From the IMG/VR virus record IMGVR_UViG_3300029119_000326: a stretch of 64,000 bases of DNA. The stretch is one strand, 5' to 3'. This document shows, in pieces, positions 2,263-61,536 of this stretch. Numbering within the stretch: position 1 is the first letter of the stretch; each line of letters opens with the position of its first letter. A program made the position numbers and the translations under genes. The notes under the pieces are model-generated. The model searched no databases. It had not been told where the DNA came from and was given only the letters and a program-made list of their open reading frames with translations. This DNA is from a virus.

Positions 2263-2586
2263 ATGGAACAGAAAAACATCAAAGAAAAATTACATAATCA
2301 TATTAAGCCATTAGGAGTAGGTAATATGTATTTTCTATATTATGATATTTCTACTCTTAGCGAAACAACTGCAACGGCGTTTCTAAATGACTTATATAAT
2401 CATTTTGTGAAGAGTATTAAAGAATATAACTGTAAATGCAAAAAGTCCGAACTTATGAAACCTAAGAAATATCAAATAGGATATGTTGTTAGTGTAGAAG
2501 GAAATTTTGCTGATTTGTCTAAAGTTGCATTTTTTGTTTCTAATATAATCAATGATGATGTAATGGGAAGGGTGAACAATGTATAA
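2263..2586 (+). CDS. hypothetical protein, translationally coupled between the TIR gene and the nuclease gene
   Basis: ATG after gagg. Overlaps the downstream gene start by 8 nt. Confidence 0.4.
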   Translation: MEQKNIKEKLHNHIKPLGVGNMYFLYYDISTLSETTATAFLNDLYNHFVKSIKEYNCKCKKSELMKPKKYQIGYVVSVEGNFADLSKVAFFVSNIINDDVMGRVNNV

Positions 2587-3418
2587 AAAAATTTCATTAA
2601 GTGTTATTTCTGTTATTATATCGTTGATTTTTTTGTTTGGTTGTTCAGCTAATGTAGTTAATAATACAACACAGCAGAGTACATTTGTATCTAATACTGC
2701 ATCAACTACAAACAGTCAAAATAGTACCGAAAATGATTTTACAAGTAGTACGACAACAGAACAGACTTTTGATATTTCTTCGATACCTGAATACAACGGT
2801 TCGCCCTATGTTGAAATTAACGATAATGTACCACAATTCACAGAAAGTGAAATTACTACATCATCATTTGAGATATACGGTGATTTAGATAGTCTTGAAC
2901 GGTGCACAACGGCTTTTTCCTGCATAGGTAAAGACTTAATGCCAACAGAAAAAAGAGGAGAAATAGGCTCAGTAAAACCGACAGGCTGGCATCTTGCTAA
3001 ATATGATTTCATTGACGGCAAATATCTTTACAATAGGTGTCATTTGATAGGTTATCAACTTACAGGTGAGAATGCTAATGAAAAGAATCTGATTACAGGC
3101 ACGAGATACCTCAATGTTCAAGGTATGCTGCCTTTTGAGAACGAAGTAGCTGAATATATTAAAAATACAAACAACCATGTTATGTACCGTGTAACACCTA
3201 TATTTGAGGAAGATAATCTTCTTGCCGATGGTGTGCAAATGGAAGGATATTCAGTTGAAGATAAAGGTGAAAGTATTTCGTTCAATGTTTTCTGTTATAA
3301 TGTTCAACCCGGTGTGAACATTGATTATGTAACCGGTGATAATTCTGCATCAGGAGAATACACAACAGCGACTGATGAAGATATAACGGATGCATATATT
3401 GTAAATCTCAATACATAA
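2579..3418 (+). CDS. secreted lipoprotein, DNA/RNA non-specific endonuclease (EndA / DNA-entry nuclease-like)
   Basis: Signal peptide with lipobox LFGC. NRCHLIGYQLTGENANEKNLITGTRYLN resembles the Endonuclease_NS_2 active region. Confidence 0.7.
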   Translation: MYKKISLSVISVIISLIFLFGCSANVVNNTTQQSTFVSNTASTTNSQNSTENDFTSSTTTEQTFDISSIPEYNGSPYVEINDNVPQFTESEITTSSFEIYGDLDSLERCTTAFSCIGKDLMPTEKRGEIGSVKPTGWHLAKYDFIDGKYLYNRCHLIGYQLTGENANEKNLITGTRYLNVQGMLPFENEVAEYIKNTNNHVMYRVTPIFEEDNLLADGVQMEGYSVEDKGESISFNVFCYNVQPGVNIDYVTGDNSASGEYTTATDEDITDAYIVNLNT

Positions 3419-4092: not shown

Positions 4093-4341
4093 ATGACTAA
4101 CACAAATATAACTAATTTCAGAAAGAACTGCTTTGAATATATTAATCAGGCTGTAATGTACAATGATGTTGTTAGTGTTAATACTAAAAACGGAAATGCT
4201 GTTGTTATCAGTGAAGATGATTATAACGGCTTACTTGAAACTCTTTATCTTTCCAATGACCAAAAGGTTAAGAATGAAATTATTGCCGGAAAAAATGCTA
4301 CGCTTGAAGAATGTGTTGATGAAAGTGAGATTGACTGGTAA
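4093..4341 (+). CDS. yefM: Phd/YefM family antitoxin
   Basis: YefM-like N-terminus. Stop overlaps the yoeB start (taATG). Confidence 0.8.
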   Translation: MTNTNITNFRKNCFEYINQAVMYNDVVSVNTKNGNAVVISEDDYNGLLETLYLSNDQKVKNEIIAGKNATLEECVDESEIDW

Positions 4342-4604
4342 TGTATAAAATTGTATATACAAAGACTGCTGTTAAGCATATTAAAAATCTTAAATTATCA
4401 AATCTTGATAAAAGAGCAAAAGCTTTGATTGAGGTTATTAGAGAAGAACCGTTCAAGAATCCACCACCTTATGAAAAATTAGTGGGAAATATGGATGGTT
4501 TGTATTCTCGAAGAATTAATATTCAACACCGGCTTGTTTATCAAATTTATGAAAATGAAAAAACAATAAAGATAGTAAGTATGTGGACCAATTATGAGTT
4601 CTAA
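4341..4604 (+). CDS. yoeB: YoeB/Txe family toxin (ribosome-dependent mRNA interferase)
   Basis: ...SRRINIQHRLVYQI...Y C-terminal YoeB signature. Confidence 0.85.
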   Translation: MYKIVYTKTAVKHIKNLKLSNLDKRAKALIEVIREEPFKNPPPYEKLVGNMDGLYSRRINIQHRLVYQIYENEKTIKIVSMWTNYEF

Positions 4605-6873: not shown

Positions 6874-6883
6874 TTACTATATA
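6874..6883 (+). promoter_or_regulatory. TTACTATATA promoter-like motif (copy upstream of the tracr/mini-array RNA)
   Basis: Member of a motif that recurs at least 10 times, T-run + TTACTATATA. Confidence 0.4.
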
Positions 6884-6949
6884 TATCATGAAAAGGTTAA
6901 TAAGCCTTTTAGGTAGAATTAGCTACCAGAAGCTATCGCTAAACATTTA

Positions 6950-7054
6950 TGTTAGATAGTAATGAATTAACAAAGGTTAAATAGTTAGTCCGCTTGCAAC
7001 TATGCCAGAGCATGAGATAGAGCTATTTAACAATGTTTAACTTTGTGATTTGAG
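6950..7054 (+). ncRNA. tracrRNA-like module (anti-repeat + nexus-like TAGTCCG + hairpin)
   Basis: ttagatagt is complementary to repeat positions 9-17. ggttaaat is complementary to the repeat 5' GTTTTA. agtTAGTCCGcttgCAACTatg resembles the S. pyogenes tracrRNA nexus ggcTAGTCCGttatCAACTtg. Conserved at 61245-61347. Confidence 0.5.
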
Positions 7055-7153
7055 GTTTTAGAACTGAAATTACATGATACTAAAAGCGCAAAAGGATGTG
7101 GAACGAATGACCGGAATGGTTTTAGAACTGCATGAATTGCATGATACTAAAAG
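7055..7153 (+). CRISPR. mini-CRISPR array, type II-like: repeat (32 nt) - spacer (32 nt) - repeat (35 nt)
   Basis: gttttagaactgaaattacatgatactaaaag / spacer cgcaaaaggatgtggaacgaatgaccggaatg (50% GC vs ~30% locally) / gttttagaactgcatgaattgcatgatactaaaag. Confidence 0.55.
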
Positions 7154-7179
7154 CGAAAGACAAAATTAGTATCATAAAG

Positions 7180-7204
7180 TCCTAAAAGCTTTTAGGATTT
7201 TATG
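7180..7204 (+). terminator. terminator after the mini-array
   Basis: tcctaaaag/cttttagga perfect inverted repeat followed by ttttat. Confidence 0.5.
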
Positions 7205-24773: not shown

Positions 24774-25205
24774 GTGAAAAATACGAGCATAAGAATTGCA
24801 TTGTTGTTAATGTGTATTATTGTTATTTCTTCTTCAAGTGCTTATGCAGCGACATATAAAGTCGAAGAAGGAAAAGAAGAAACAATTACAGTTAATGTTG
24901 ATTATAACAAGACAACTGCAGAAAGCACTACGAAAAGTGAAACTCAATATACAGAAAATAATACCACTAATGTTGTAACTACTGAAATCGTTAGTACAAC
25001 AGAACCAAATATTGTGCAAACAACAAGTGAAACTATTGCCACAGAAACCACACCGAAGCCAACAAAAACCAAGGCAACAAAAAAACATAAAAAAGAAAAA
25101 AGTGTAAAAACTGGTTTCAACACTTTACCGTTATATTTTACAATAATAGGACTGGCAATATTATTGATTATCATGAAAAGAAAGAGGGTGCGAATAAATG
25201 AGTAA
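24774..25205 (+). CDS. small T-rich surface protein with a sortase-type sorting signal (SVKTG + TM + KRKR)
   Basis: Signal peptide. C-terminal SVKTGFNTLPLYFTIIGLAILLIIMKRKRVR. Confidence 0.5.
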   Translation: MKNTSIRIALLLMCIIVISSSSAYAATYKVEEGKEETITVNVDYNKTTAESTTKSETQYTENNTTNVVTTEIVSTTEPNIVQTTSETIATETTPKPTKTKATKKHKKEKSVKTGFNTLPLYFTIIGLAILLIIMKRKRVRINE

Positions 25206-28200
25206 AAATAAAAAAATAATTTCTGTTTTTTTAGCTATTATTACAATGCTTACTTGCTTTCCGATTTCGGCATTTGCTAATAATATAGACTGGGAATATT
25301 CTGTTAATGAAGACAATACAATCGAAATAACAGGATACAACGGAGATTTATCATCAACTCTTGAATTACCAAAAACAATTGATGATAAAACCGTTATAGG
25401 TACTTCTTCCGAAATTTTTGAAAACAAAAGCGTAGATAATGTAAAAACAATTATAATTCCATATACATATCAATTTATTTGGAATCTTGATTTGTTTTCT
25501 AATTTGAAAAAAATTGAAGCCCATTCGTTAACTATACAAAATATGTATTTGTTAAATGGAGGACAGGAAAACAAATACATTGAATTAAACAGTGAAAATA
25601 TAGAAAAATTTGAAAAATCACTTGCTGTATTGTCAAAATTAAACGAATCGTTATGTGAAAACAATAAAGAAATAAATAAAGAAAAAACAACAGATTGTAA
25701 GAAAGATGGTATAAACTACATTTGTAAAGTGTGTGGATACGAATGGAAAAAAGCTTGTCAAGAGCACCAATATGAGTATGTTAAAGAAAAGAGTACAAAA
25801 GATAATTGCTATTCTGAATGCATTGCTTGTGGCGAGCAGATAAAAAGTAATCATAATTACAAATCTGAAATAACAAAAGCACCAACTTGTACCGAAGAAG
25901 GAACAAAAACATATACTTGTACAAATTGTGGATATTCATATACAGAGAATATACCAAAAACAACTCATAATTATGTTCGCAAGACCTTGGTTGAAGCAAC
26001 TTGTGCACAACCGGGTACTGACGAATTGACTTGTAGCAAATGTGGATATAAAGAGACGGAAAAAACATATAAATCACATGAATATGATGATGGAGTTGTT
26101 GTTGACGAAGGCAATTGCGTTAATGTAAAAATTAAATATACCTGCAAATTTTGTGGAAACACATATGAAGAAACTGAAGATGTTCTTCATGATTGTATAA
26201 TAGAAAATGGCTATTTTCAATGTAAAAGATGTAATAAAAAAGTCAAACTTACTTTTAATTCAATCAATACAAAAAATTATACATACGATTTTGATGATGT
26301 TAATGATTTGGACTGGGATGGTGCATTGAATACATATGTTATAAATTGCAATGAAGATTCTCGGTATACATTTGATTTTTCAAAATTAAATTTCAATTCA
26401 GATCATGGTAGTGTAAGTTTAGTTAAAATAGATCCGGACTTTACCGATGATGAAATTATTTTTTATTCCCTACTTAAACAAGCTTATCCGCGATACCAAT
26501 TAGATAAATATGATACAGATGGTAGATGCCATCCTGTTGAAAATGCACCTAAACTTTCTTATGATTTCTTATCAATGTTTAGTTTATATGATTGGACTGC
26601 ATATGGATGGGATCCAGAATGGTCTGCTAATCTAGAAGATAAATTTGAATGGATTGAAAATTCGGAGCTGCAATTCAAAAATAGTCAAGTCTTTTTTGAT
26701 CTACAAAAAGATAGAAGTAATGGCAAAGCATATAATTATCTTGAAAAATATGGAAGTGAGTGCTTTTTGGGTGGTACTACTAAAGAAACACTTTTATTAA
26801 ATAAAGGTAAATATTTATTAGTTGTAAAAAACGCTTATTCTGATTCTTGCAAAGAACCTATGTTTACAGGAAAATTTGATATAAAAAAAGAATGCAATCA
26901 TGTTTATAACGAAACTATAACAAAAGCACCAACTTGTAATGAAAAAGGAACAAAAACATATACTTGCACAAAATGTGGATATTCATATACAGAGGATATA
27001 CCAAAAATAACACACAATTACAAAGCCAAAATAACAAAAGAGCCAACATGTACCGAAGAAGGAATAAAAACATATACTTGTAAATTATGTGGTGATTCTT
27101 ATACAGAAATCATTCCGGCAACCAGACACGAGTACAAAAAAATCAATATAGACGATAAAACATATAAAATTGAATGCTCAAAATGTGGTTTAAATCGTTT
27201 TTATAAAGAATTAGATGATTGGACTATTACATTTAGCGGTAATGATAATACTTGTACGCTGTATAAATATAATGGTTCAGAAACAATTTTGTCACTTCCG
27301 GAAAAAGTTGGAAAATATAAAGTTTTAGGTTTGGAAAAAAGTGCTTTTGAAAATGTTAAAATAGCTGACGATATAACAGAAGTAACTATTCCTTATACAT
27401 ATAAAAAGGTTGAAGGAATAGAAAATTTGTCTAATTTGCGACAATTGAATTATCATGAAATTTTATGGGATTATTTTAGTAATGAACTAATAAGCTTTTT
27501 TGACCAAAATAATATATACTGTCGTTCTCTTTGCGAAGGACATTGGTATACGGATCAAGATTGTACAAAACAAGACATAGATGTTTATTGCAAAATATGT
27601 GGATATACGGAAAAAAGAGACTCTAATATGACCTATTTTGAGGATGGTCATCAATATGTGATAAGTAATGTTAACGGTGATATAATTACCTATACTTGTA
27701 CACAATGCCCGAATTCATATACAATGATTTGCAAACATAATAATGCCAAATACGACAGAAAAGTTGAAGCAAATTGCCAGCATGGCTCATACGATATATA
27801 TGTTTGTCTTGACTGTAACAACGAAATTAAGCGTCATGAACAATCAACTCTTGGTGAACACTCTTATGAAATAAAAAAAGGAAAAGCCATATGTAAAGTT
27901 TGTCAAAACGAAATCACTTACAAATCATATAATATAGATGAGTTAAATAAACAATACACTTTCTATCAAAAGGATTTCTATGATGATCACTTATCTTCTA
28001 CCGAAAAGAAAAATCGTTATAATTGTATAAAGCTGACAATTGATAAAAATAATACTCCGGTTTATTTCTATCAAACAAAAAGTCAAGGAAAATTTAATAT
28101 AAGGACATTCGAAGGGTTAAGTCAAGATGAAATTGATTATTATTTAATTTCATCTTCGCAGTATGGTTTAAATTATAATAACTTTGAAAAATACAGCGAA

Positions 28201-31113
28201 TTTGAAAATGATATTAACTCGTATTTGAATAATGAAAAAAAGCAAGAAATAATTCCGGAAGAACCAAGTATATTTAAAAATAATGAGCCGGTTTATTTAG
28301 ATAAAGGTATTTATTATCTGTTTTTAGATTTTGGTCCGGGAAGTTTGGCAATCTCTAATTCACCAATATACAAATGTGACACAAAATTGCATTTTCAAAA
28401 TCCGGAAGATTATAATATCATGTATAATCAAATTGCTGAAAATTTGCCGAACAGTTGCACAAATGAAGAATATAAAGAAGCCTTTAAAGATTTTTCAAGC
28501 TACAACAAAACACATAATTTCGTTTTTTATAAGAATGAAAAACTTGCACACGATATAACAACTTATCAGTTTAGCGGCAGCGATAACGAAAAAATCAAAA
28601 ATACTTATGAAGATGCAGAATGTATTTCAATGATTTGTGAAAATTGTGGTGAAATTGTTTATAGCTATGCTAAATTTGAGGTTGAAGCTGATCAAGATAA
28701 GGATCCTGATAATAAACATCCTGAAAAAATAGATGATAGTGACCACAATTTTGTTTACACTTATGATGAGCCAAATTGTATTGAAGCTGGATATAAAAAG
28801 TGGACTTGCAAGAACAGTGTGGTACAAGGATATGTTTTAACCGGAGACACAGAACATCATTCTTATATTGAAGATTACATACAAAATAAGAATGATATAC
28901 CTTCTGATTTTGTTAATGCAACATTTGACGAATTTAAGAATTATTATAATCAAAATTTCGAAAGAAAATTTGAGGAGAAATATCCAGATGTAAATTCATT
29001 TTTAGATTTATATAAAAATAAAAATTCTAATAACTTTTTTGAATATGAATCTAATTATGATGCATTGATGAATTTTATAAAAAGTCATAGTTTTTACGAA
29101 ACTGATTATTGTGATAAGGAAATAAAAGAAGTAGTACCTGCTCTTTCAACTAACCATCAACATAGTTTTAAGGCTACATACACTGCTAACTTTGATGGCA
29201 CACATAACAAAAAAGCCGTTTGCACTAATAAGGGTTGTTATAGTTATATGAAAGAAAAAGAACTTTACAACCTTACTGATTCTGAGGCTTCTGAGTTAAA
29301 TTTAAACTATTTTAGAGATAATAATGGAATATGGTATAAATTCGATGAAAACGGAAATTCGACAGTTGTAAACAGGAACAGTGAGAAAATTGTCCTTAAT
29401 ACTTATGGCAAAAAAGTAAAAACAACAACAAAAATAAATGAAACTGAAAATTGCATTTATGACGACAATTGCACCTGTATCTATTGTGGAGCTGTAAATC
29501 ATAAAAAAATAAACAGTGAAATATCAAATTATATTCCATCAACAGCAGATACAAACGGTTCATATATTAAAACAGATTATTGTGAAAAATGTAACGCGAT
29601 TGTTGATGTAAATAAAATAATTTTACCAAAAGGAGAAATCACTGTTAATGTAGATGACAATATTACTCTAAAAGTAAACAAAAAGGGAACATATTCAGCA
29701 TCATATAACATCAAATTTAACGGTATTGACGACTATTCTAATATAACATTCAAACCAAAAGATACACTTGTTCTTGTTAATGATAAAACAAATGAATCTA
29801 AAATAGCGAAAGTATCACAAAAACAAATTGAATTTTCTAAAGATAAAGGTCTTACAACAACAGGTACGGTTACTGTTGAAAGTTTAACAGAAGGTACTTG
29901 GACCGGATATATTACATTTGACTACTACTTTTGGAAAAATGTAGATGTAACAGATTATTTCATTTGGACTCAAGATACAGAAAATTTGTATGTTTTAAAT
30001 AATGATGGTAAAACAGAAGAATACTGGAATGACGAATTGATTAAAATGATACAGGATAATCAATCGAACAATGTATGGGTGGATGAAAACAAAAATATCA
30101 GAGAAAAGTTGCCTTCGGATTTATATTATAAATATTTGAATTCACGAGTATTTGATAGTTCTTCGTTTGAAGATGATAATTTACAACAAAAAAGTAAAAA
30201 TGCGTATAATCATCATTGTTCTAATAATTTAGCAATTAAAAAAGAAAATACATTAACCGGATATATTCCATATGAAAGAACGGCAATAAACGGATTGATG
30301 GATTTGGGTGCTGAATGGATTAAAGCTAACAATGGCAAGCTTGTTATACCATCGTGCGCAACTGCAATAGCAGATGCCAAAGTTATCAATTCGACTACTA
30401 CATCAGATGAATATAACACAACAGATCCGGTAAGAGATGTATATTCAATTGTAAAATATGGAAAAGGAGCATTTCAACCGTATTTAATTTCCTATGATAA
30501 AAGCGGTAAGAAATATTATGTTGAGGATGATAATGTAACTTTGATTGATCCTTATTCAAGTCGAGGTAGAGAAATTAAACATTATAATGATAATATTTAT
30601 AGTGTTACAGAAGTAATTATTCCAAATAGTTGTAAATCAATTGGTATAAAATCATTTTTCTACAATAGTAGTATTAAAAATATTACTCTCAAAGGATCCA
30701 CATTTGTTAAAAATTATGCATTTTCAGGAATTGATTCTGCATATGCTCTTGGAAATTCATATGAAAATCTTTATGAAGTAAATAATAAGAAAAACGATAA
30801 ACTTGATATATATATCCCTGACGATACAATCTTTAGTTCACTTGTATTTGGATGTGCAAATGCATTAGAATCACTTGAATTGTATGGCTCAATTGCAAAA
30901 GTGCTACTCGTAGATAACAAGTATCCTGATAAGTTAGTTGGATATGATTATCATGAAACTTCTGCGGATATAATTATTCATTATAATTCATTAGAAGAAT
31001 TAAATAGAATAAAAAACGCTTCGCCTATTTACAGATTTTTTGATAATTCTTATAGTGAGAATGAATATTACAAAACTAATAATATGAATTTTATAAAAAA
31101 TAGTGGTACATAA
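25198..31113 (+). CDS. giant secreted protein (1971 aa) with BspA-type leucine-rich repeats at both ends and about 10 four-Cys repeats
   Basis: Signal peptide. Repeats ITKAPTCTEEGTKTYTCTNCGYSYTENIPKTTHNY. LRR-like ...IIPNSCKSIGIKSFFYNSSIKNITLKG. Confidence 0.7.
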   Translation: MSKNKKIISVFLAIITMLTCFPISAFANNIDWEYSVNEDNTIEITGYNGDLSSTLELPKTIDDKTVIGTSSEIFENKSVDNVKTIIIPYTYQFIWNLDLFSNLKKIEAHSLTIQNMYLLNGGQENKYIELNSENIEKFEKSLAVLSKLNESLCENNKEINKEKTTDCKKDGINYICKVCGYEWKKACQEHQYEYVKEKSTKDNCYSECIACGEQIKSNHNYKSEITKAPTCTEEGTKTYTCTNCGYSYTENIPKTTHNYVRKTLVEATCAQPGTDELTCSKCGYKETEKTYKSHEYDDGVVVDEGNCVNVKIKYTCKFCGNTYEETEDVLHDCIIENGYFQCKRCNKKVKLTFNSINTKNYTYDFDDVNDLDWDGALNTYVINCNEDSRYTFDFSKLNFNSDHGSVSLVKIDPDFTDDEIIFYSLLKQAYPRYQLDKYDTDGRCHPVENAPKLSYDFLSMFSLYDWTAYGWDPEWSANLEDKFEWIENSELQFKNSQVFFDLQKDRSNGKAYNYLEKYGSECFLGGTTKETLLLNKGKYLLVVKNAYSDSCKEPMFTGKFDIKKECNHVYNETITKAPTCNEKGTKTYTCTKCGYSYTEDIPKITHNYKAKITKEPTCTEEGIKTYTCKLCGDSYTEIIPATRHEYKKINIDDKTYKIECSKCGLNRFYKELDDWTITFSGNDNTCTLYKYNGSETILSLPEKVGKYKVLGLEKSAFENVKIADDITEVTIPYTYKKVEGIENLSNLRQLNYHEILWDYFSNELISFFDQNNIYCRSLCEGHWYTDQDCTKQDIDVYCKICGYTEKRDSNMTYFEDGHQYVISNVNGDIITYTCTQCPNSYTMICKHNNAKYDRKVEANCQHGSYDIYVCLDCNNEIKRHEQSTLGEHSYEIKKGKAICKVCQNEITYKSYNIDELNKQYTFYQKDFYDDHLSSTEKKNRYNCIKLTIDKNNTPVYFYQTKSQGKFNIRTFEGLSQDEIDYYLISSSQYGLNYNNFEKYSEFENDINSYLNNEKKQEIIPEEPSIFKNNEPVYLDKGIYYLFLDFGPGSLAISNSPIYKCDTKLHFQNPEDYNIMYNQIAENLPNSCTNEEYKEAFKDFSSYNKTHNFVFYKNEKLAHDITTYQFSGSDNEKIKNTYEDAECISMICENCGEIVYSYAKFEVEADQDKDPDNKHPEKIDDSDHNFVYTYDEPNCIEAGYKKWTCKNSVVQGYVLTGDTEHHSYIEDYIQNKNDIPSDFVNATFDEFKNYYNQNFERKFEEKYPDVNSFLDLYKNKNSNNFFEYESNYDALMNFIKSHSFYETDYCDKEIKEVVPALSTNHQHSFKATYTANFDGTHNKKAVCTNKGCYSYMKEKELYNLTDSEASELNLNYFRDNNGIWYKFDENGNSTVVNRNSEKIVLNTYGKKVKTTTKINETENCIYDDNCTCIYCGAVNHKKINSEISNYIPSTADTNGSYIKTDYCEKCNAIVDVNKIILPKGEITVNVDDNITLKVNKKGTYSASYNIKFNGIDDYSNITFKPKDTLVLVNDKTNESKIAKVSQKQIEFSKDKGLTTTGTVTVESLTEGTWTGYITFDYYFWKNVDVTDYFIWTQDTENLYVLNNDGKTEEYWNDELIKMIQDNQSNNVWVDENKNIREKLPSDLYYKYLNSRVFDSSSFEDDNLQQKSKNAYNHHCSNNLAIKKENTLTGYIPYERTAINGLMDLGAEWIKANNGKLVIPSCATAIADAKVINSTTTSDEYNTTDPVRDVYSIVKYGKGAFQPYLISYDKSGKKYYVEDDNVTLIDPYSSRGREIKHYNDNIYSVTEVIIPNSCKSIGIKSFFYNSSIKNITLKGSTFVKNYAFSGIDSAYALGNSYENLYEVNNKKNDKLDIYIPDDTIFSSLVFGCANALESLELYGSIAKVLLVDNKYPDKLVGYDYHETSADIIIHYNSLEELNRIKNASPIYRFFDNSYSENEYYKTNNMNFIKNSGT

Positions 31114-43635: not shown

Positions 43636-45072
43636 TTGAAAAGTGAAGTGAAATACATGAAATATATAACTGAAATGTTTTTATATATAAATTATTTTAA
43701 GAAAAAATTTAATATCAAAACACAAACCTTTAATCCGTATTATACGGCAATAGAAGGAGTAAAAAAATATTGTGAATACAATGATGTAAATTTAGACAAA
43801 AGAAACAAAATTGAAGATTACATTATTTCTTTGAATGTTCCAAACATTAAAATCAATATATTCAATCTTTTGTATCCAAATGTTAAATGTAATGTTACTG
43901 ATGAAAGAGTTCAAAAATGTGATTTATCTATGCTGTCGGATTCACTTTTATTGAAATATCTTTTTATTATTTTTTCTACAATAAATTTTGTTTATAAAGA
44001 TAATCTAATAGGTCTTAAATACAATGCTGTTATATGGAAGACAGGATTTCATAATCTTGCAAAACTCTGCAGAGGAAAAGTAATAGATAGTAAAACAATG
44101 ACAATAGTTTCATATCCTTTTGATAAATTTTTTAATGTAAACGAAGTATCGGAAACAAAAGAGGATATTATTAAAGAACTTGTGGGTGAAAGCACTTATG
44201 TATATACAACCGACAAAAAAGATGGTTCTACTATTATAGTTTCACTTTATAAGAACAAACCTCTCATCACTACAAATGGTTCTTTTGAAAATGACCAGAT
44301 TGTATTGGCAGAACAACTTCTAAAAAAGAAATATCCAAAATTTTTAAAGGAAATAAAGGAAGGATATACTTATATCTTTGAACTTATACATCCTGAAAAC
44401 AGAATAGCAATAAATTACGGTGATGAAAAATCACTTTATTTACTTGCCGTAAGAGACTTAAGAACAGAAAAACTTCTTTCACTTGATGAAACTCATATCA
44501 TTGCAAATGATTTTGGCTTTCCTGTTCCTCAAACATTTTCTTTTAAAAATCTTTCTGATATTCTTTATCTTGCTCATACAGAAAGAAATACTAACCGTGA
44601 AGGATGGGTACTTCGTATAGGAAAAAAAGATGGTGGAGAATTTATGCTCAAAATAAAATTAGATGAATACTTTGAACTTCACTCAGTTTTCAGTAAAATT
44701 ACTCTTACATTTGTATATCGGCATTTGCTTGCAAATGACCTTGATGATATTATCATCATTGTTTCCGAAAATCAACAAAAAGAAATAAAGGAATATATTA
44801 AAGAAATTGAAATTATCAGAGAAAAAATAAAAGAAAATTCTGAAGATTTAACCGAAGATATTTGCAAAAGATTTGCCACTTCTTCGATAGCTGCAAAAAC
44901 CGACAGAGAACTTACTGTCAAAATTATAAGTGAAATTATAAAAGAAAAAAGTATGTACGGAGATTTTGCTATTGAATATTTGAAATACGGAGACAGCGTT
45001 GAGGATAAAATACGAAAAATTCCTGCAAAAAAATTTAATAAATTTGTTGAGATTTTGAACGAAAAGATTTGA
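43636..45072 (+). CDS. ATP-dependent RNA ligase (T4 Rnl1-like nucleotidyltransferase)
   Basis: Motif I TDKKDGSTIIV (KxDG). EGWVLR (motif IV). MLKIKLDEY (motif V, K-x-K). Confidence 0.6.
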   Translation: MKSEVKYMKYITEMFLYINYFKKKFNIKTQTFNPYYTAIEGVKKYCEYNDVNLDKRNKIEDYIISLNVPNIKINIFNLLYPNVKCNVTDERVQKCDLSMLSDSLLLKYLFIIFSTINFVYKDNLIGLKYNAVIWKTGFHNLAKLCRGKVIDSKTMTIVSYPFDKFFNVNEVSETKEDIIKELVGESTYVYTTDKKDGSTIIVSLYKNKPLITTNGSFENDQIVLAEQLLKKKYPKFLKEIKEGYTYIFELIHPENRIAINYGDEKSLYLLAVRDLRTEKLLSLDETHIIANDFGFPVPQTFSFKNLSDILYLAHTERNTNREGWVLRIGKKDGGEFMLKIKLDEYFELHSVFSKITLTFVYRHLLANDLDDIIIIVSENQQKEIKEYIKEIEIIREKIKENSEDLTEDICKRFATSSIAAKTDRELTVKIISEIIKEKSMYGDFAIEYLKYGDSVEDKIRKIPAKKFNKFVEILNEKI

Positions 45073-54588: not shown

Positions 54589-56265
54589 ATGATAAAAAAT
54601 AAACTTATAAATAAAATTATAGCTGTTTCTTTGACGGCGCTGACATTATCAAGTTCCGCAGTACCGGCTATGGCAGCTACACAAAATGTTAATTCAATAG
54701 CTTCAGTCGCAGAAGATATTTCGAATTCACAAAAAGTAGGTCAAGATAAAAATCAAAGTAAGCAAACTAAATATAGTGAATATCAAGATGATACAAATGC
54801 ATCAACTGATGTATATATCACACAAACATCAACTTTTTCGGTAACGGCACCGGTAATTGCAATACTCAATGGTCAACCTGATGACAGCGGTAATTATACA
54901 GGCGATGTAAAATACAGTGTTAAAGGTAATATTGCATCAAACGAAATTGTTAAGGTAGTTCCGGACAATTCGTTATCCTTATCTCAACCCGGCAAAGATG
55001 ATATTGAATGTTCAATTGTTGGAAAAAATAATGAAGTTGCAAAAACAGAATTCACTTATGCTGATGGTCTTCGTGCTAAAAAAGAGTTAAGTCAAGAATA
55101 CACTTTGACTACACAAGATATTACGGCAGGTTCATGGCATGGTAATTTTAACACAAATATTTCACTTGAAAACAATCTTAAATGGTATGATATTACAGAT
55201 AAGATTGATTTAGCAAACGGTGAAAATGCTCGTTGGAATATGTTCGGTATACTGACGAAAGGCAATTCAAAAAATGAGTACAGAACGGTAAATATTCCTG
55301 TTCAACAAGGAGAAAAATATAGAGTAACTGGTGTCGTTTATGGTAGCGATAGATTGTTAACAGCAAGATCTGAACTTGGATATGGTTCTCAGTATACAAT
55401 TGATAATCAAATGATTCCGGCAAACAATATCAATGGAACAGGAACTATTAAAGAACAAGTATTGACTATACCAGAAGGCGCAAAATGGTTATGTATATCA
55501 TCATCAAAGTTTGCTTTGTCACAGTTCAAGCTTGAAAAACTTAGTGATGATTCTGTAAACATTACTTCTTATTCAAGTGAAAATTTCAAATGGGAATTTG
55601 ATAAGCCATATTTGACATTTACTGTTGATGATACAAATGACAATATTGACGAAATTGCAAAAGTTTTTGCAAAACACAATATGCCTTGTAATTACGCAAC
55701 ACAGTATTCAAGAATTAACGGCACTGCAAATAACGGCGAAACAAAAAAAGATATATTATTGAAAGCCCAAGAATCAGGTAGCGAAATTTTGGCTCATCAT
55801 TATCTTGTTCTTGATGATAAATCAACAGAAAATGATTATACCGAAATATACGAAAATATAAAAACACAACTTGAAAAAGCCGGCTTTATTGTAAATGGTA
55901 TTATTGTTTCGGGCGGTTCAACATATTCGAAGCAAGATTTTTCTAAGTCAACAAAACATGCTTACGCTGCTGGTTACTTATATTCGGATTTAACAGCGAC
56001 AAATAATGTATATAATCATAGATATTATAATAGCAGAATTTTTAATGACTCCGCAGATATTAGTTATTGGAAAACTCAAATTGATAATTTGGTGAATGAC
56101 GGTTCTGGTTGGTTAAATATTGGTTCACATGTTGATGCGCAATGGTCAAGTGGTCACACAATGAATCCTGAAATGATTGATAAAATACTTACTTATTGTG
56201 AAGAAAAAGGTGTTGAGGTAACAACTTGGAATTCGCTTTATAATAATTGTGGCGTAAACAAATAA
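54589..56265 (+). CDS. secreted paralog with shared N-terminal module + C-terminal NodB-like (polysaccharide deacetylase-like) domain
   Basis: Signal peptide AMAATQNVNS. Shared block. C-terminal FTVDDTNDNIDEIAKVFAKHNMP. Confidence 0.5.
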   Translation: MIKNKLINKIIAVSLTALTLSSSAVPAMAATQNVNSIASVAEDISNSQKVGQDKNQSKQTKYSEYQDDTNASTDVYITQTSTFSVTAPVIAILNGQPDDSGNYTGDVKYSVKGNIASNEIVKVVPDNSLSLSQPGKDDIECSIVGKNNEVAKTEFTYADGLRAKKELSQEYTLTTQDITAGSWHGNFNTNISLENNLKWYDITDKIDLANGENARWNMFGILTKGNSKNEYRTVNIPVQQGEKYRVTGVVYGSDRLLTARSELGYGSQYTIDNQMIPANNINGTGTIKEQVLTIPEGAKWLCISSSKFALSQFKLEKLSDDSVNITSYSSENFKWEFDKPYLTFTVDDTNDNIDEIAKVFAKHNMPCNYATQYSRINGTANNGETKKDILLKAQESGSEILAHHYLVLDDKSTENDYTEIYENIKTQLEKAGFIVNGIIVSGGSTYSKQDFSKSTKHAYAAGYLYSDLTATNNVYNHRYYNSRIFNDSADISYWKTQIDNLVNDGSGWLNIGSHVDAQWSSGHTMNPEMIDKILTYCEEKGVEVTTWNSLYNNCGVNK

Positions 56266-60385: not shown

Positions 60386-60644
60386 AACCATACAAGTAAT
60401 AACAAAAAAGTTAGGACTTTTTGTATTGGAAGGGTTGCTGACCTTTCCGTAGTTTTTCTAATGATTTAAAGGAAGTTTAGCAAAAGTGTACATATTACTT
60501 TACTGAATTTAATCACCGTCATTAACACGCTGATAGACAGTATTTCTCCCACAATTCGGGAAGTAAAGAGATCTATTGGTTGAAAGTAAATGGATACGGC
60601 AGAACAGTGCACATCTGCCGTATCACGATTATTAAATGTGCAGA

Positions 60645-60650
60645 TATAAT
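60645..60650 (+). promoter_or_regulatory. -10 TATAAT just upstream of the solitary repeat unit
   Basis: Perfect TATAAT. Weak -35 (atcacg). Predicted TSS falls at the repeat's first nucleotides. Confidence 0.3.
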
Positions 60651-60657
60651 GTAAGAG

Positions 60658-60693
60658 GTTTTAGAGCAGTATAAAATTGCATGGTACTAAAAA
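60658..60693 (+). CRISPR. solitary type II-like CRISPR repeat unit (36 nt) abutting tRNA-Gln
   Basis: gttttagagcagtataaaattgcatggtactaaaaa, 31/36 identical to the 61348 repeat. Ends 2 nt before the tRNA 5' end. Confidence 0.5.
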
Positions 60694-60695
60694 AT

Positions 60696-60770
60696 AGGAA
60701 TATAGCCAAACGGTAAGGCAACGGACTTTGACTCCGTTATTTGTAGGTTCGATCCCTGCTATTCCTGCCA
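60696..60770 (+). tRNA. tRNA-Gln (UUG)
   Basis: Acceptor AGGAATA/TATTCCT + G + CCA. D-arm GCC-AAACGGTAA-GGC like E. coli tRNA-Gln. Anticodon stem ACGGA/TCCGT, loop CTTTGAC. Confidence 0.8.
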
Positions 60771-60883
60771 TCAAAAAATCAACACAGACAATTCTCCTCA
60801 TTCAGTATAATATAAAAAAACGGAATTCTACATAACAAGGCAAAAGTTTTGTTGATTTCTTTTGCTTTGTTGTAAAAAATAAT

Positions 60884-60958
60884 GCAGATATGATGTAATC
60901 GGTAGCATCTTACTCTTCCAAAGTAAGTGAGCGAGTTCAAACCTCGTTATCTGCTCCA
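60884..60958 (+). tRNA. tRNA-Gly (UCC), divergent
   Basis: Acceptor GCAGATA/TATCTGC + T + CCA. Anticodon stem TTACT/AGTAA, loop CTTCCAA. T-arm GCGAG-TTCAAAC-CTCGT. Confidence 0.6.
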
Positions 60959-60964
60959 AAATAT

Positions 60965-61040
60965 TCTCCATTAGTTCAGAAGGTAGAACGGTAGACTGTT
61001 AATCTATATGTCATTGGTTCGAATCCAATATGGAGAGCCA
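60965..61040 (+). tRNA. tRNA-Asn (GUU)
   Basis: Acceptor TCTCCAT/ATGGAGA + G + CCA. D-stem GTTC/GAAC. Anticodon loop CTGTTAA. Confidence 0.75.
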
Positions 61041-61043
61041 AAC

Positions 61044-61119
61044 GGACCGTTAGCTTAGCAGGTAAAGCAACCGGCTCATAACCGGTAAACCATGGGTTCA
61101 AATCCTATACGGTCCACCA
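61044..61119 (+). tRNA. tRNA-Met (CAU) elongator, or tRNA-Ile2 if lysidinylated
   Basis: Acceptor GGACCGT/ACGGTCC + A + CCA. Anticodon stem ACCGG/CCGGT, loop CTCATAA. Confidence 0.75.
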
Positions 61120-61122
61120 TAT

Positions 61123-61198
61123 GTGTCATTAGCTCAGTAGGTAGAGCAACAGACTTTTAATCTGTGGGTCAAGGGTTCAATTCCCTTATGGCACACCA
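61123..61198 (+). tRNA. tRNA-Lys (UUU)
   Basis: Acceptor GTGTCAT/ATGGCAC + A + CCA. Anticodon stem CAGAC/GTCTG-like, loop CTTTTAA. T-loop GGTTCAATTCC. Confidence 0.75.
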
Positions 61199-61244
61199 CT
61201 TAATAGGGCTGAATTAGCAGCCTGATACTATCGTTAGACATTTT

Positions 61245-61347
61245 TGTTTGATAGTGATGAATAAGCAAAGGTTGAATAGTTAGTTCGTTTGCGGCTATGT
61301 CAGGATGTAATAGAGCTATTTAACAATGCTTAACTTTGTAATTTGAG
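61245..61347 (+). ncRNA. tracrRNA-like module, second copy (about 85% identical to 6950-7054)
   Basis: tttgatagtgatgaataagcaaaggttgaatagttagttcgtttgcggctat... Paired substitutions keep the atagtt...ggctat stem. Confidence 0.45.
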
Positions 61348-61440
61348 GTTTTAGAGCTATCTAAAATTACATGGTACTAAAAGAGAAATATATCTTTTTG
61401 TTTTAGAACTGTATGAAATATGCGTGAACTACCATACACC
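61348..61440 (+). CRISPR. type II-like CRISPR repeat (36 nt) + 16-nt gap + degenerate repeat
   Basis: gttttagagctatctaaaattacatggtactaaaag is 25/36 identical to the S. pyogenes type II-A repeat (first 13 nt identical). Second unit gttttagaactgtatgaaatat... Confidence 0.5.
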
Positions 61441-61458
61441 ATAAAGGTATGTGTTTTT
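61433..61458 (+). terminator. terminator-like hairpin + T-run
   Basis: catac...gtatg stem followed by tgttttt. Confidence 0.4.
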
Positions 61459-61536
61459 ATTGAAAATATTTTATAAAAAAAACGAGGGTTGTCTGTTACC
61501 GGATAGCCCTTTTAAACTAATTGAAAGGAGATAATT

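Follow-up and report, generated by a model that had tools for sequence, protein, structure and literature searches.

Which role is played by a conserved, structured module that lies directly 3' of a tRNA cluster and continues into Cas9-type repeats? This question is raised by positions 61200-61458 (termed locus B) of the virus record IMGVR_UViG_3300029119_000326 (IMG/VR), of which a stretch of 64,000 nucleotides (nt), referred to as the window, was analyzed. The window comprises only a part of a conjugative element, which measures at least 112 kb in its relatives. We consider it probable that locus B is a cas-less (orphan) type II-A CRISPR mini-array on the + strand of this element, and one of 2-3 paralogous copies. 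This reading is carried by the architecture of the locus, by leader and repeat signatures of type II-A and by spacers which differ between close relatives. The conserved module itself is the folded leader RNA of the array and not a trans-activating CRISPR RNA (tracrRNA), to which the initial annotation had likened it.

Layout of locus B and its type II-A signatures

The features of locus B are as follows:

61200-61347, + strand: structured leader (module B), ~148 nt, 82-96% identical to the other module copies
61341-61347, + strand: leader-end (leader-anchoring) motif ATTTGAG, abutting R1
61348-61383, + strand: full 36-nt type II-A-like repeat, R1
61384-61399, + strand: 16-nt AT-rich gap or truncated spacer, AGAAATATATCTTTTT
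61400-61436, + strand: degenerate terminal repeat, R2, with the first 20 nt intact and the remainder diverged with a 1-nt insertion
61433-61458, + strand: intrinsic terminator, hairpin 61433-61453 and T-run 61454-61458, seen in the sequence itself and recovered by RNAfold

Locus B falls within a 1.65-kb non-coding gap and starts 2 nt past the end of tRNA-Lys (61198), i.e. directly 3' of the tRNA cluster as had been described. The AT-rich gap, the degenerate repeat and the hairpin with its T-run were likewise found as annotated, and a normal spacer is indeed missing, the gap having 16 nt instead of about 30 nt. A consensus terminator scan misses the terminator because it is too AT-rich. An identity of about 85% had been claimed for 61245-61347 and 6950-7054 and was reproduced by alignment (89/105 columns, 84.8%); the homology is wider than noted, extending over ~6905-7090 versus 61200-61383 with a spacing of 54,293 nt, and the copy near 7 kb is termed locus A. 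A degenerate terminal repeat together with a terminator, as seen at locus B, is typical of arrays, and the first 20 nt of R2 are those at the start of the locus A terminal repeat in a relative (L079). A coding reading of the module was rejected on account of a 2-nt indel between the paralogues and of open reading frames (ORFs) of at most 22 amino acids (aa).

With respect to the type of array, R1 is identical to the Streptococcus pyogenes repeat at 25/36 positions, the first 13 nt being the same, in accordance with the earlier count. A closer match (28-30/36) was obtained with the repeats of II-A-type arrays found in a genome-wide pattern scan (L021, L033, L030, L015). The related arrays that were examined sit downstream of cas9-cas1-cas2-csn2, as shown for L010, L021 and L033; Pfam analysis assigned Csn2, Cas2, Cas1 and Cas9 in L033 and Csn2, Cas1 and Cas9 in L010, and cas2 is listed in L088. 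Nine arrays with related repeats have ATTTGAG, or a one-base variant of it, as the end of the leader directly before the first repeat. The corresponding junctions of the element read taATTTGAG followed by GTTTTAGAG at locus B (61347/61348) and tgATTTGAG followed by GTTTTAGAA at 7 kb. ATTTGAG is the leader end of Group 1 II-A arrays, and spacer integration was reported to require this motif together with the first repeat, the two also being sufficient for it (PMC5382924). Since the last 7 nt of the module are this leader-end motif, the module is the leader of the array.

Locus B thus carries a 36-nt repeat of the GTTTTAGA... family and an ATTTGAG leader end, and lacks both a ~30-nt spacer, which its sister loci possess, and adjacent cas9, cas1, cas2 and csn2 genes. 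Cas9, Cas1, Cas2 and Csn2 ORFs from nine loci had no homologue in the 64-kb window by tblastn, so that the array is orphan. In analogy to a Group 1 II-A leader, the module shows the junction of ATTTGAG with GTTTTAGA and a predicted stem between leader and first repeat, and at locus B the last repeat is degenerate. Unlike such leaders, it has about double the length of the related cas-linked ones (roughly 70 nt), contains an extra multi-helix domain, has no csn2 upstream and is devoid of the split anti-repeat-like halves of related leaders. The latter were observed in the ~70-nt leaders of L005, L010, L015, L020, L030, L031, L033 and L037 (cas linkage confirmed for L010 and L033), where two halves of anti-repeat-like sequence stand ~20-25 nt apart, the gap usually holding a TATAAT-like box, with leader:repeat energies of -18 to -26 kcal/mol.

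Fold of the leader RNA

The fold was derived from an alignment (A2) of nine distinct module copies, which represent three paralogue lineages (A, B and C) of close relatives. Relatives whose type IA topoisomerase (TopA) is 53-64% identical lack the module and the repeats according to a TopA synteny search, so the covariation analysis is confined to close relatives. The RNAalifold consensus comprises 52 pairs, with 99.1% of the cells paired over the nine copies. Compensatory changes on both sides were found in 6 pairs, compared to 0-1 in controls with slid partners. For leader plus array (61199-61462) the minimum free energy was -63.4 kcal/mol on the + strand (z -2.5) and -35.1 kcal/mol on the - strand (z -0.65), and owing to the many G.U pairs the fold is specific to one strand. 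Evidently, the leader fold is under structural selection. Its elements are:

61207-61222, + strand: leader hairpin H1, GGCUG AAUUAG CAGCC, with two covarying base pairs
61264-61330, + strand: long-range leader domain, closed by an AGCA/UGCU helix and holding an inner hairpin and the 11-bp helix GGUUGAAUAGUU/GAGCUAUUUAAC (61271-61281 with 61314-61324)
61337-61371, + strand: predicted leader-first-repeat stem, UGUAAUUU (61337-61344) with AAAUUACA (61364-61371)

The clearest covariation was observed for H1, whose arms read GGTAG/CTACC in lineage A, GGCTG/CAGCC in B and GGCAG/CTGCC in C around an invariant AAUUAG loop. In the long-range domain GGUURAAUAGUU pairs with the repeat-like GAGCUAUUUAAC, the closing helix changes from AGCA/UGCU to AACA/UGUU in lineage A, and the compensatory changes fall on alignment columns 66-132, 86-112 and 89-106. 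The predicted stem to the first repeat has 8 bp, is 97% paired over the nine copies and shows G.U-compatible changes; the 8 nt preceding the GAG of the leader end would pair with repeat nt 17-24. This stem matches a hairpin of type II-A systems, formed between the leader and an extra repeat, which suppresses the spacer-less first CRISPR RNA (crRNA), as described by Liao et al. 2022 in the form cited in PMC12080349.

Selection on RNA structure had already been put forward in the initial annotation, which based it on paired substitutions in a hairpin of atagtt/aactat versus atagtt/ggctat. The selection is upheld by the 6 compensatory pairs; the fold on which it acts differs from the one proposed. 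Within the annotated hairpin 0 pairs are changed on both sides, as the 3' arm alone changes (AA to GG, giving G.U pairs) and reads AACCAT in three related copies, leading to an A.C mismatch. In the better-supported fold ATAGTT pairs with the downstream GAGCTAT and not with the AACTAT arm.

Sister loci, spacers and competing explanations

Further copies of the module or the repeat are found in the window at two positions:

6905-7054, + strand: paralogous leader (module A), preceded by TTACTATATA at 6874-6883
7055-7154, + strand: locus A mini-array with R1 at 7055-7086 (4-nt deletion), a 32-nt spacer at 7087-7118 and R2 at 7119-7154
7180-7201, + strand: hairpin (7180-7197) plus T-run after locus A, read from the sequence
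60658-60693, + strand: solitary repeat, remnant of locus C, 31/36 identical to R1 and ending 2 nt before tRNA-Gln
60696-61198, + strand: tRNA cluster Gln, Gly, Asn, Met, Lys (ARAGORN and Rfam), with repeat loci on both flanks

At locus A the motif TTACTATATA is a plausible promoter, and the 3' end of the array can fold back on the terminal repeat since TTAGTATCAT (within 7155-7201) is complementary to ATGATACTAA of the repeat. The solitary repeat had been missed before. Four relatives (L045, L046, L058, L083) have module C, a repeat, a 30-nt spacer and a second repeat at the same position, the last repeat abutting tRNA-Gln; two of them, L045 and L046, encode a TopA that is 99% identical to that of the window, and module C was lost from the window. 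The statement that two copies bracket most of the cargo is correct solely in a geometric sense; relatives hold a third copy 0.7 kb upstream of locus B. All relatives seen have kept 2-3 module copies.

The spacers differ between close relatives. The 32-nt spacer of locus A is common to the window, L001, L002 and L057, and L079 carries an unrelated 30-nt spacer between near-identical flanks. At locus B the 16-mer recurs in L003 with one substitution; in L045, L046 and L083 it is replaced by an unrelated 14-mer, TATAAGTTTGAAAT, between conserved flanks (about 88% identical). It had been suggested that locus B is a decayed array or a pure decoy. Either is possible, and neither is the sole reading, given that the sister loci contain real 30-32-nt spacers and that the spacers of both locus A and locus B vary between relatives.

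As to the mechanism, locus B would be transcribed by read-through from the tRNA cluster, which we regard as probable, and locus A from its own promoter motif. The leader would then fold, and its 3' end would sequester the first repeat in the manner of II-A leaders already described. TracrRNA, RNase III and Cas9, acting in trans from the host or from an unseen part of the element, could process the unit of spacer and terminal repeat; since the first repeat would be held by the leader, this unit would be the product. Most likely, the arrays borrow Cas9 and tracrRNA from the host. Loci A and C with their 30-32-nt spacers could thereby provide a normal guide directing Cas9 against competing DNA. 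Guides of 16 nt or less allow Cas9 to bind without cleavage. The 14-16-nt spacer of locus B may accordingly serve Cas9 binding without cutting or the titration of Cas9 and tracrRNA, and its length suggests a binding-only role similar to that of small CRISPR-associated RNAs (scaRNAs), a decoy role, or decay.

In scaRNAs and in the viral scaRNAs recently reported from phages a truncated guide is joined to a repeat-like sequence that pairs with tracrRNA, and Cas9 is reported to then repress the cas9 promoter (bioRxiv 10.64898/2026.06.01.729453). Locus B resembles them in that, on a mobile element, a sequence of guide length (14-16 nt) immediately precedes a repeat-like sequence with a terminator behind it; the 16-nt sequence continues into GTTTTAGAACTGTATGAAAT... 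and the 14-nt sequence of L045 into GTTTTACGAC..., so that the first nucleotides of the repeat are kept. In contrast to scaRNAs, the guide lies inside a leader-repeat-spacer-repeat array instead of standing alone, the carrier is a conjugative element and not a phage (conjugative elements are unmentioned in bioRxiv 10.64898/2026.06.01.729453), and locus B has no target, cas9 promoter match or neighboring anti-CRISPR (Acr) or anti-CRISPR-associated (Aca) gene that could be identified. It is a speculative and rather doubtful extension of the orphan-array assignment that the short spacers of locus B are functional, forming a scaRNA-like unit within a II-A leader-array scaffold which is co-transcribed with the tRNAs and turns Cas9 and tracrRNA of the recipient into a non-cutting repressor (e.g. 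of the cas9 promoter). The sister loci would then cut competitors, and the short guide would be swapped between variants to match their hosts.

Most of the cas-less mini-arrays known from mobile elements were described for phages and for systems of type I, III and IV. Plasmid-borne orphan arrays and mini-arrays carried by mobile elements have been documented (PMC9071438, PMC11656645), and the loci described here agree with them in carrying 1-2 spacers and no cas genes on a mobile carrier, with the host Cas machinery presumed to act in trans. The same pattern recurs in the cas-less II-A-like arrays of pHTbeta, a conjugative plasmid, and of Javan415, a satellite phage. Differences are the 2-3 paralogous copies per element that share a covarying structured leader of ~148 nt, the two copies flanking a tRNA cluster, the 14-16-nt spacer of locus B and the failure to find a target, while most spacers of known viral mini-arrays match related viruses. 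What is particular here is therefore the multi-copy, longer-than-usual covarying leader, the linkage to the tRNA cluster and the short spacer that is replaced as a unit.

The arrays of pHTbeta and Javan415 are both unannotated. In pHTbeta of Enterococcus faecium (L086 at ~1230-1680; NC_007594.1 ~43.7-44.2 kb) the repeat GTTTTAGAACCATGTAAAACCACATAGTTCTCAAAT alternates with 30-nt spacers behind a leader ending in ...TTGAG, and 29 Enterococcus plasmids were matched. Javan415 of Streptococcus (L085 at 1160-1410; MK448483.1) carries a four-repeat array beside an integrase, in which ...TTTGAG stands before the first and the third repeat and looks like a duplicated leader end.

Several observations weigh against an orphan array that works with a host Cas9. 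No promoter was identified for locus B. Repeat-pattern scans of genomes and metagenomes revealed no cognate cas locus and only II-A arrays with 25-30/36 identical positions, neither a cognate Cas9 nor a cognate tracrRNA was found, and duplexes between the repeats of the element and the native tracrRNAs from the closest II-A loci are weak (-7 to -16 kcal/mol). A search for protospacers of the three full-length spacers in the window, the other loci analyzed, viral contigs, plasmids and phages gave no match, and seed matches of the 14-16-nt spacers did not exceed chance level. To our knowledge, normal II-A adaptation is unable to generate a spacer of 16 nt. Furthermore, the repeat copies of the element are heterogeneous (28-33/36 identical to one another, with positions 9-16 variable), unlike those of a working host array, and R1 of locus A, which is intact in L001 and L002, has the 4-nt deletion in the window; both findings also fit partial decay. 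Finally, just three paralogue lineages contribute to the covariation, and the alignment used for testing the fold is also the one that yielded it.

The scans also returned a gut plasmid system with cas9-cas1-cas2 (28/36) and one mini-array (33/36) beside TnpB. The former is represented by 6450-9700 of L052 (human gut metagenome contig OWPF01000953) and ten similar loci, in which arrays of the repeat GTTTTAGAGGTACTAAAAATGTCATGATACTAAAAC converge on cas2-cas1-cas9 without csn2 and are flanked on the other side by genes for a MobA/MobL relaxase and a RepB primase; these loci are a Cas9 system on a mobilizable plasmid. The latter, on the reverse strand of L067 at ~430-590 (OGFF01015872.1), consists of leader, repeat, 30-nt spacer and degenerate repeat, with a repeat 33/36 identical to R1, and lies directly 5' of a TnpB gene (Cas12f-like TNB, OrfB_IS605); its leader holds TAGTTCTAAAAC, complementary to the start of the repeat. 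With regard to the 16-nt spacer, a 13-nt exact match to its repeat-proximal end (AATATATCTTTTT), the sole one of this length in the window, occurs at 55745-55757 on the - strand within the ORF 54589-56265 and is probably a coincidence (chance expectation about 0.06).

Among the alternatives, a decaying relic, i.e. a II-A leader and array which was captured, duplicated and is now eroding without present function, seems unlikely to us and has the most in its favor. The truncated spacer, the heterogeneous repeats and the deletion in R1 of locus A all speak for it, as do the reduction of locus C to one repeat in the window, the lack of cas genes and tracrRNA there and the absence of the module from the TopA relatives at 53-64% identity. 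On the other hand, compensatory changes keep the leader fold in all copies, and conservation extends to the leader end, to the terminators and to both ends of the repeats (the first 8 and about the last 20 nt). Moreover, no relative seen has dropped below 2-3 copies, and the spacers were replaced as units while the flanks remained near-identical (locus A) or about 88% identical (locus B).

RNA anti-CRISPRs (Racrs) are solitary repeat units on mobile elements and known inhibitors (PMC10651486), and in analogy to them repeat RNAs, especially those of the repeat at 60658 and of locus B, could soak up host tracrRNA and Cas9 and thereby shield the incoming element. The likeness is greatest for the solitary repeat: as it ends 2 nt before tRNA-Gln, RNase P cleavage at the tRNA would release an RNA ending at the repeat. 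Several repeat copies without identifiable targets would also suit a decoy. Racrs have, however, been shown where Cas proteins bind the repeat directly, while type II requires pairing with tracrRNA, and PMC10651486 names 'type II' once and tracrRNA or II-A never. With the predicted leader stem formed, R1 would be inaccessible to tracrRNA, locus B consists of a leader, two repeats and a short spacer, and a decoy does not need the real 30-32-nt spacers of loci A and C. No promoter was found before the solitary repeat, and the preceding 19 nt are similar to a 5' fragment of tRNA-Gly. Altogether, we rate the decoy as improbable.

These 19 nt (60639-60657, TGCAGATATAATGTAAGAG) are similar to the 5' end of the tRNA-Gly gene at 60884 (GCAGATATGATGTAATCGG) and have the appearance of a scar left by rearrangement, not of a promoter. 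GCAGATATAATGTAAGAG in front of the solitary repeat was dropped as a promoter candidate because of this resemblance.

It is very unlikely that the modules matter mainly as DNA, i.e. as recombination substrates that reshuffle or delete cargo or recombine with CRISPR arrays of the host. One relative (L003, IMGVR_UViG_3300045988_183523) does carry at 735-1069 a hybrid module with a 5' part from C and a 3' part from B, and its tRNA cluster is gone, so that homologous recombination between direct module copies deletes cargo; in addition, recombination between plasmid and host CRISPR arrays has been proposed (PMC9071438). Such recombination is, however, the expected by-product of any direct repeat, and it accounts neither for the G.U-rich fold specific to one strand and the compensatory changes nor for the leader-end motif and the terminators.

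There remains the tracrRNA-like gene of the initial annotation, with which the element would supply its own tracrRNA beside a decoy repeat. The module adjoins type II repeats, module A looks by eye partly like the nexus region of S. pyogenes, and the short sequence TTAGATAG shows complementarity to nt 10-17 of the repeat. An anti-repeat is nevertheless missing. The best duplexes of the module + strand with full-length repeats of the element reached -14 to -17.5 kcal/mol, and those of both strands with all repeat variants -8 to -18 kcal/mol, compared to a background of -12±3.3 kcal/mol across the window and to control tracrRNA:repeat duplexes of -39.5 (S. pyogenes), -36.1 (L087) and -34.4 kcal/mol (L088); a window-wide anti-repeat scan gave nothing better than -25 kcal/mol. 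In alignments with the S. pyogenes tracrRNA 389/500 shuffles scored as well as module B, and module A showed a weak local likeness near AAGGTTAAATAGTTAGTCCG that was equaled by 21/500 shuffles. Against the native tracrRNAs recovered from two related II-A loci (L087, L088) 3/4 comparisons were not significant and module A versus L087 was marginal (14/300); over all three tracrRNAs 4/6 local alignments thus stayed within the shuffle distribution. An Rfam search of the module at E<=10 returned neither a tracrRNA nor a CRISPR match. No terminator occurs between 61200 and 61347, the module continuing into the repeat with the sole terminator 3' of the array. The native tracrRNAs are encoded upstream of cas9 and on the opposite strand, whereas the module is contiguous with the array on the same strand without a cas9 nearby. 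A minus-strand tracrRNA was rejected as well, the fold being specific to the + strand and a nexus and terminator being absent. With duplexes far weaker than those of true pairs, similarity that is marginal at best and a 3' end that is a leader end, the tracrRNA assignment is the least credible of all and can be set aside. As a lesson for annotation, a conserved structured RNA 5' of type II repeats is not necessarily a tracrRNA.

Under the orphan-array reading, a family of large conjugative elements maintains 2-3 mini-arrays of the Cas9 type, preceded by a common leader RNA on the fold of which selection acts. If these were expressed and loaded on a host Cas9, tactics of phages (repeat decoys, viral scaRNAs) would be extended to conjugation, and one element would offer a natural case in which the same host nuclease both cuts rivals and regulates. 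If inert, the loci would still be a record of II-A leader-array modules that were captured, duplicated and recombined on plasmids.

Surroundings of the locus in the element

The window has a G+C content of 29.5%, and its + strand carries nearly all genes. Its conjugative nature follows from genes for a type IV secretion coupling protein, a 1955-aa SpaA/thioester adhesin, a sortase and TopA; toxin-antitoxin pairs are also encoded. A near-identity search of 56-64 kb against plasmids and phages returned tRNA matches only. Upstream of locus A the following genes were observed:

1193-2254: TIR-domain protein
2579-3418: non-specific endonuclease
4093-4604: Phd/YoeB toxin-antitoxin pair
964-1212: HicB-like antitoxin
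244-924: uracil DNA glycosylase

Searches of the small neighboring ORFs with Pfam and PHROGs for Acr and Aca genes yielded only toxin-antitoxin genes and the uracil DNA glycosylase.

The motif TTACTATATA found before locus A occurs 11 times on the + strand and 0 times on the - strand (0.56 expected per strand):

4858, 6683, 6874, 23170, 31148, 33231, 37751, 47509, 50483, 58980 and 60221, + strand: copies of TTACTATATA

All but one of the 11 copies fall between genes, mostly 36-180 nt 5' of ORF starts and with a T-rich tract in front. TTACTATATA is probably a promoter motif of the element's own, possibly for a sigma factor which the element encodes.

Besides the five tRNA genes including Lys-UUU (60696-61198), the window contains a T4 Rnl1-like RNA ligase (43636-45072), beside which no polynucleotide kinase was found. 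The pairing of tRNA genes and RNA ligase suggests tRNA replacement or repair that counters anticodon nucleases. Finally, an ORF of 1971 aa at 25198-31113 has zero Pfam matches and includes 104-nt direct repeats at 25870, 26917 and 27031.

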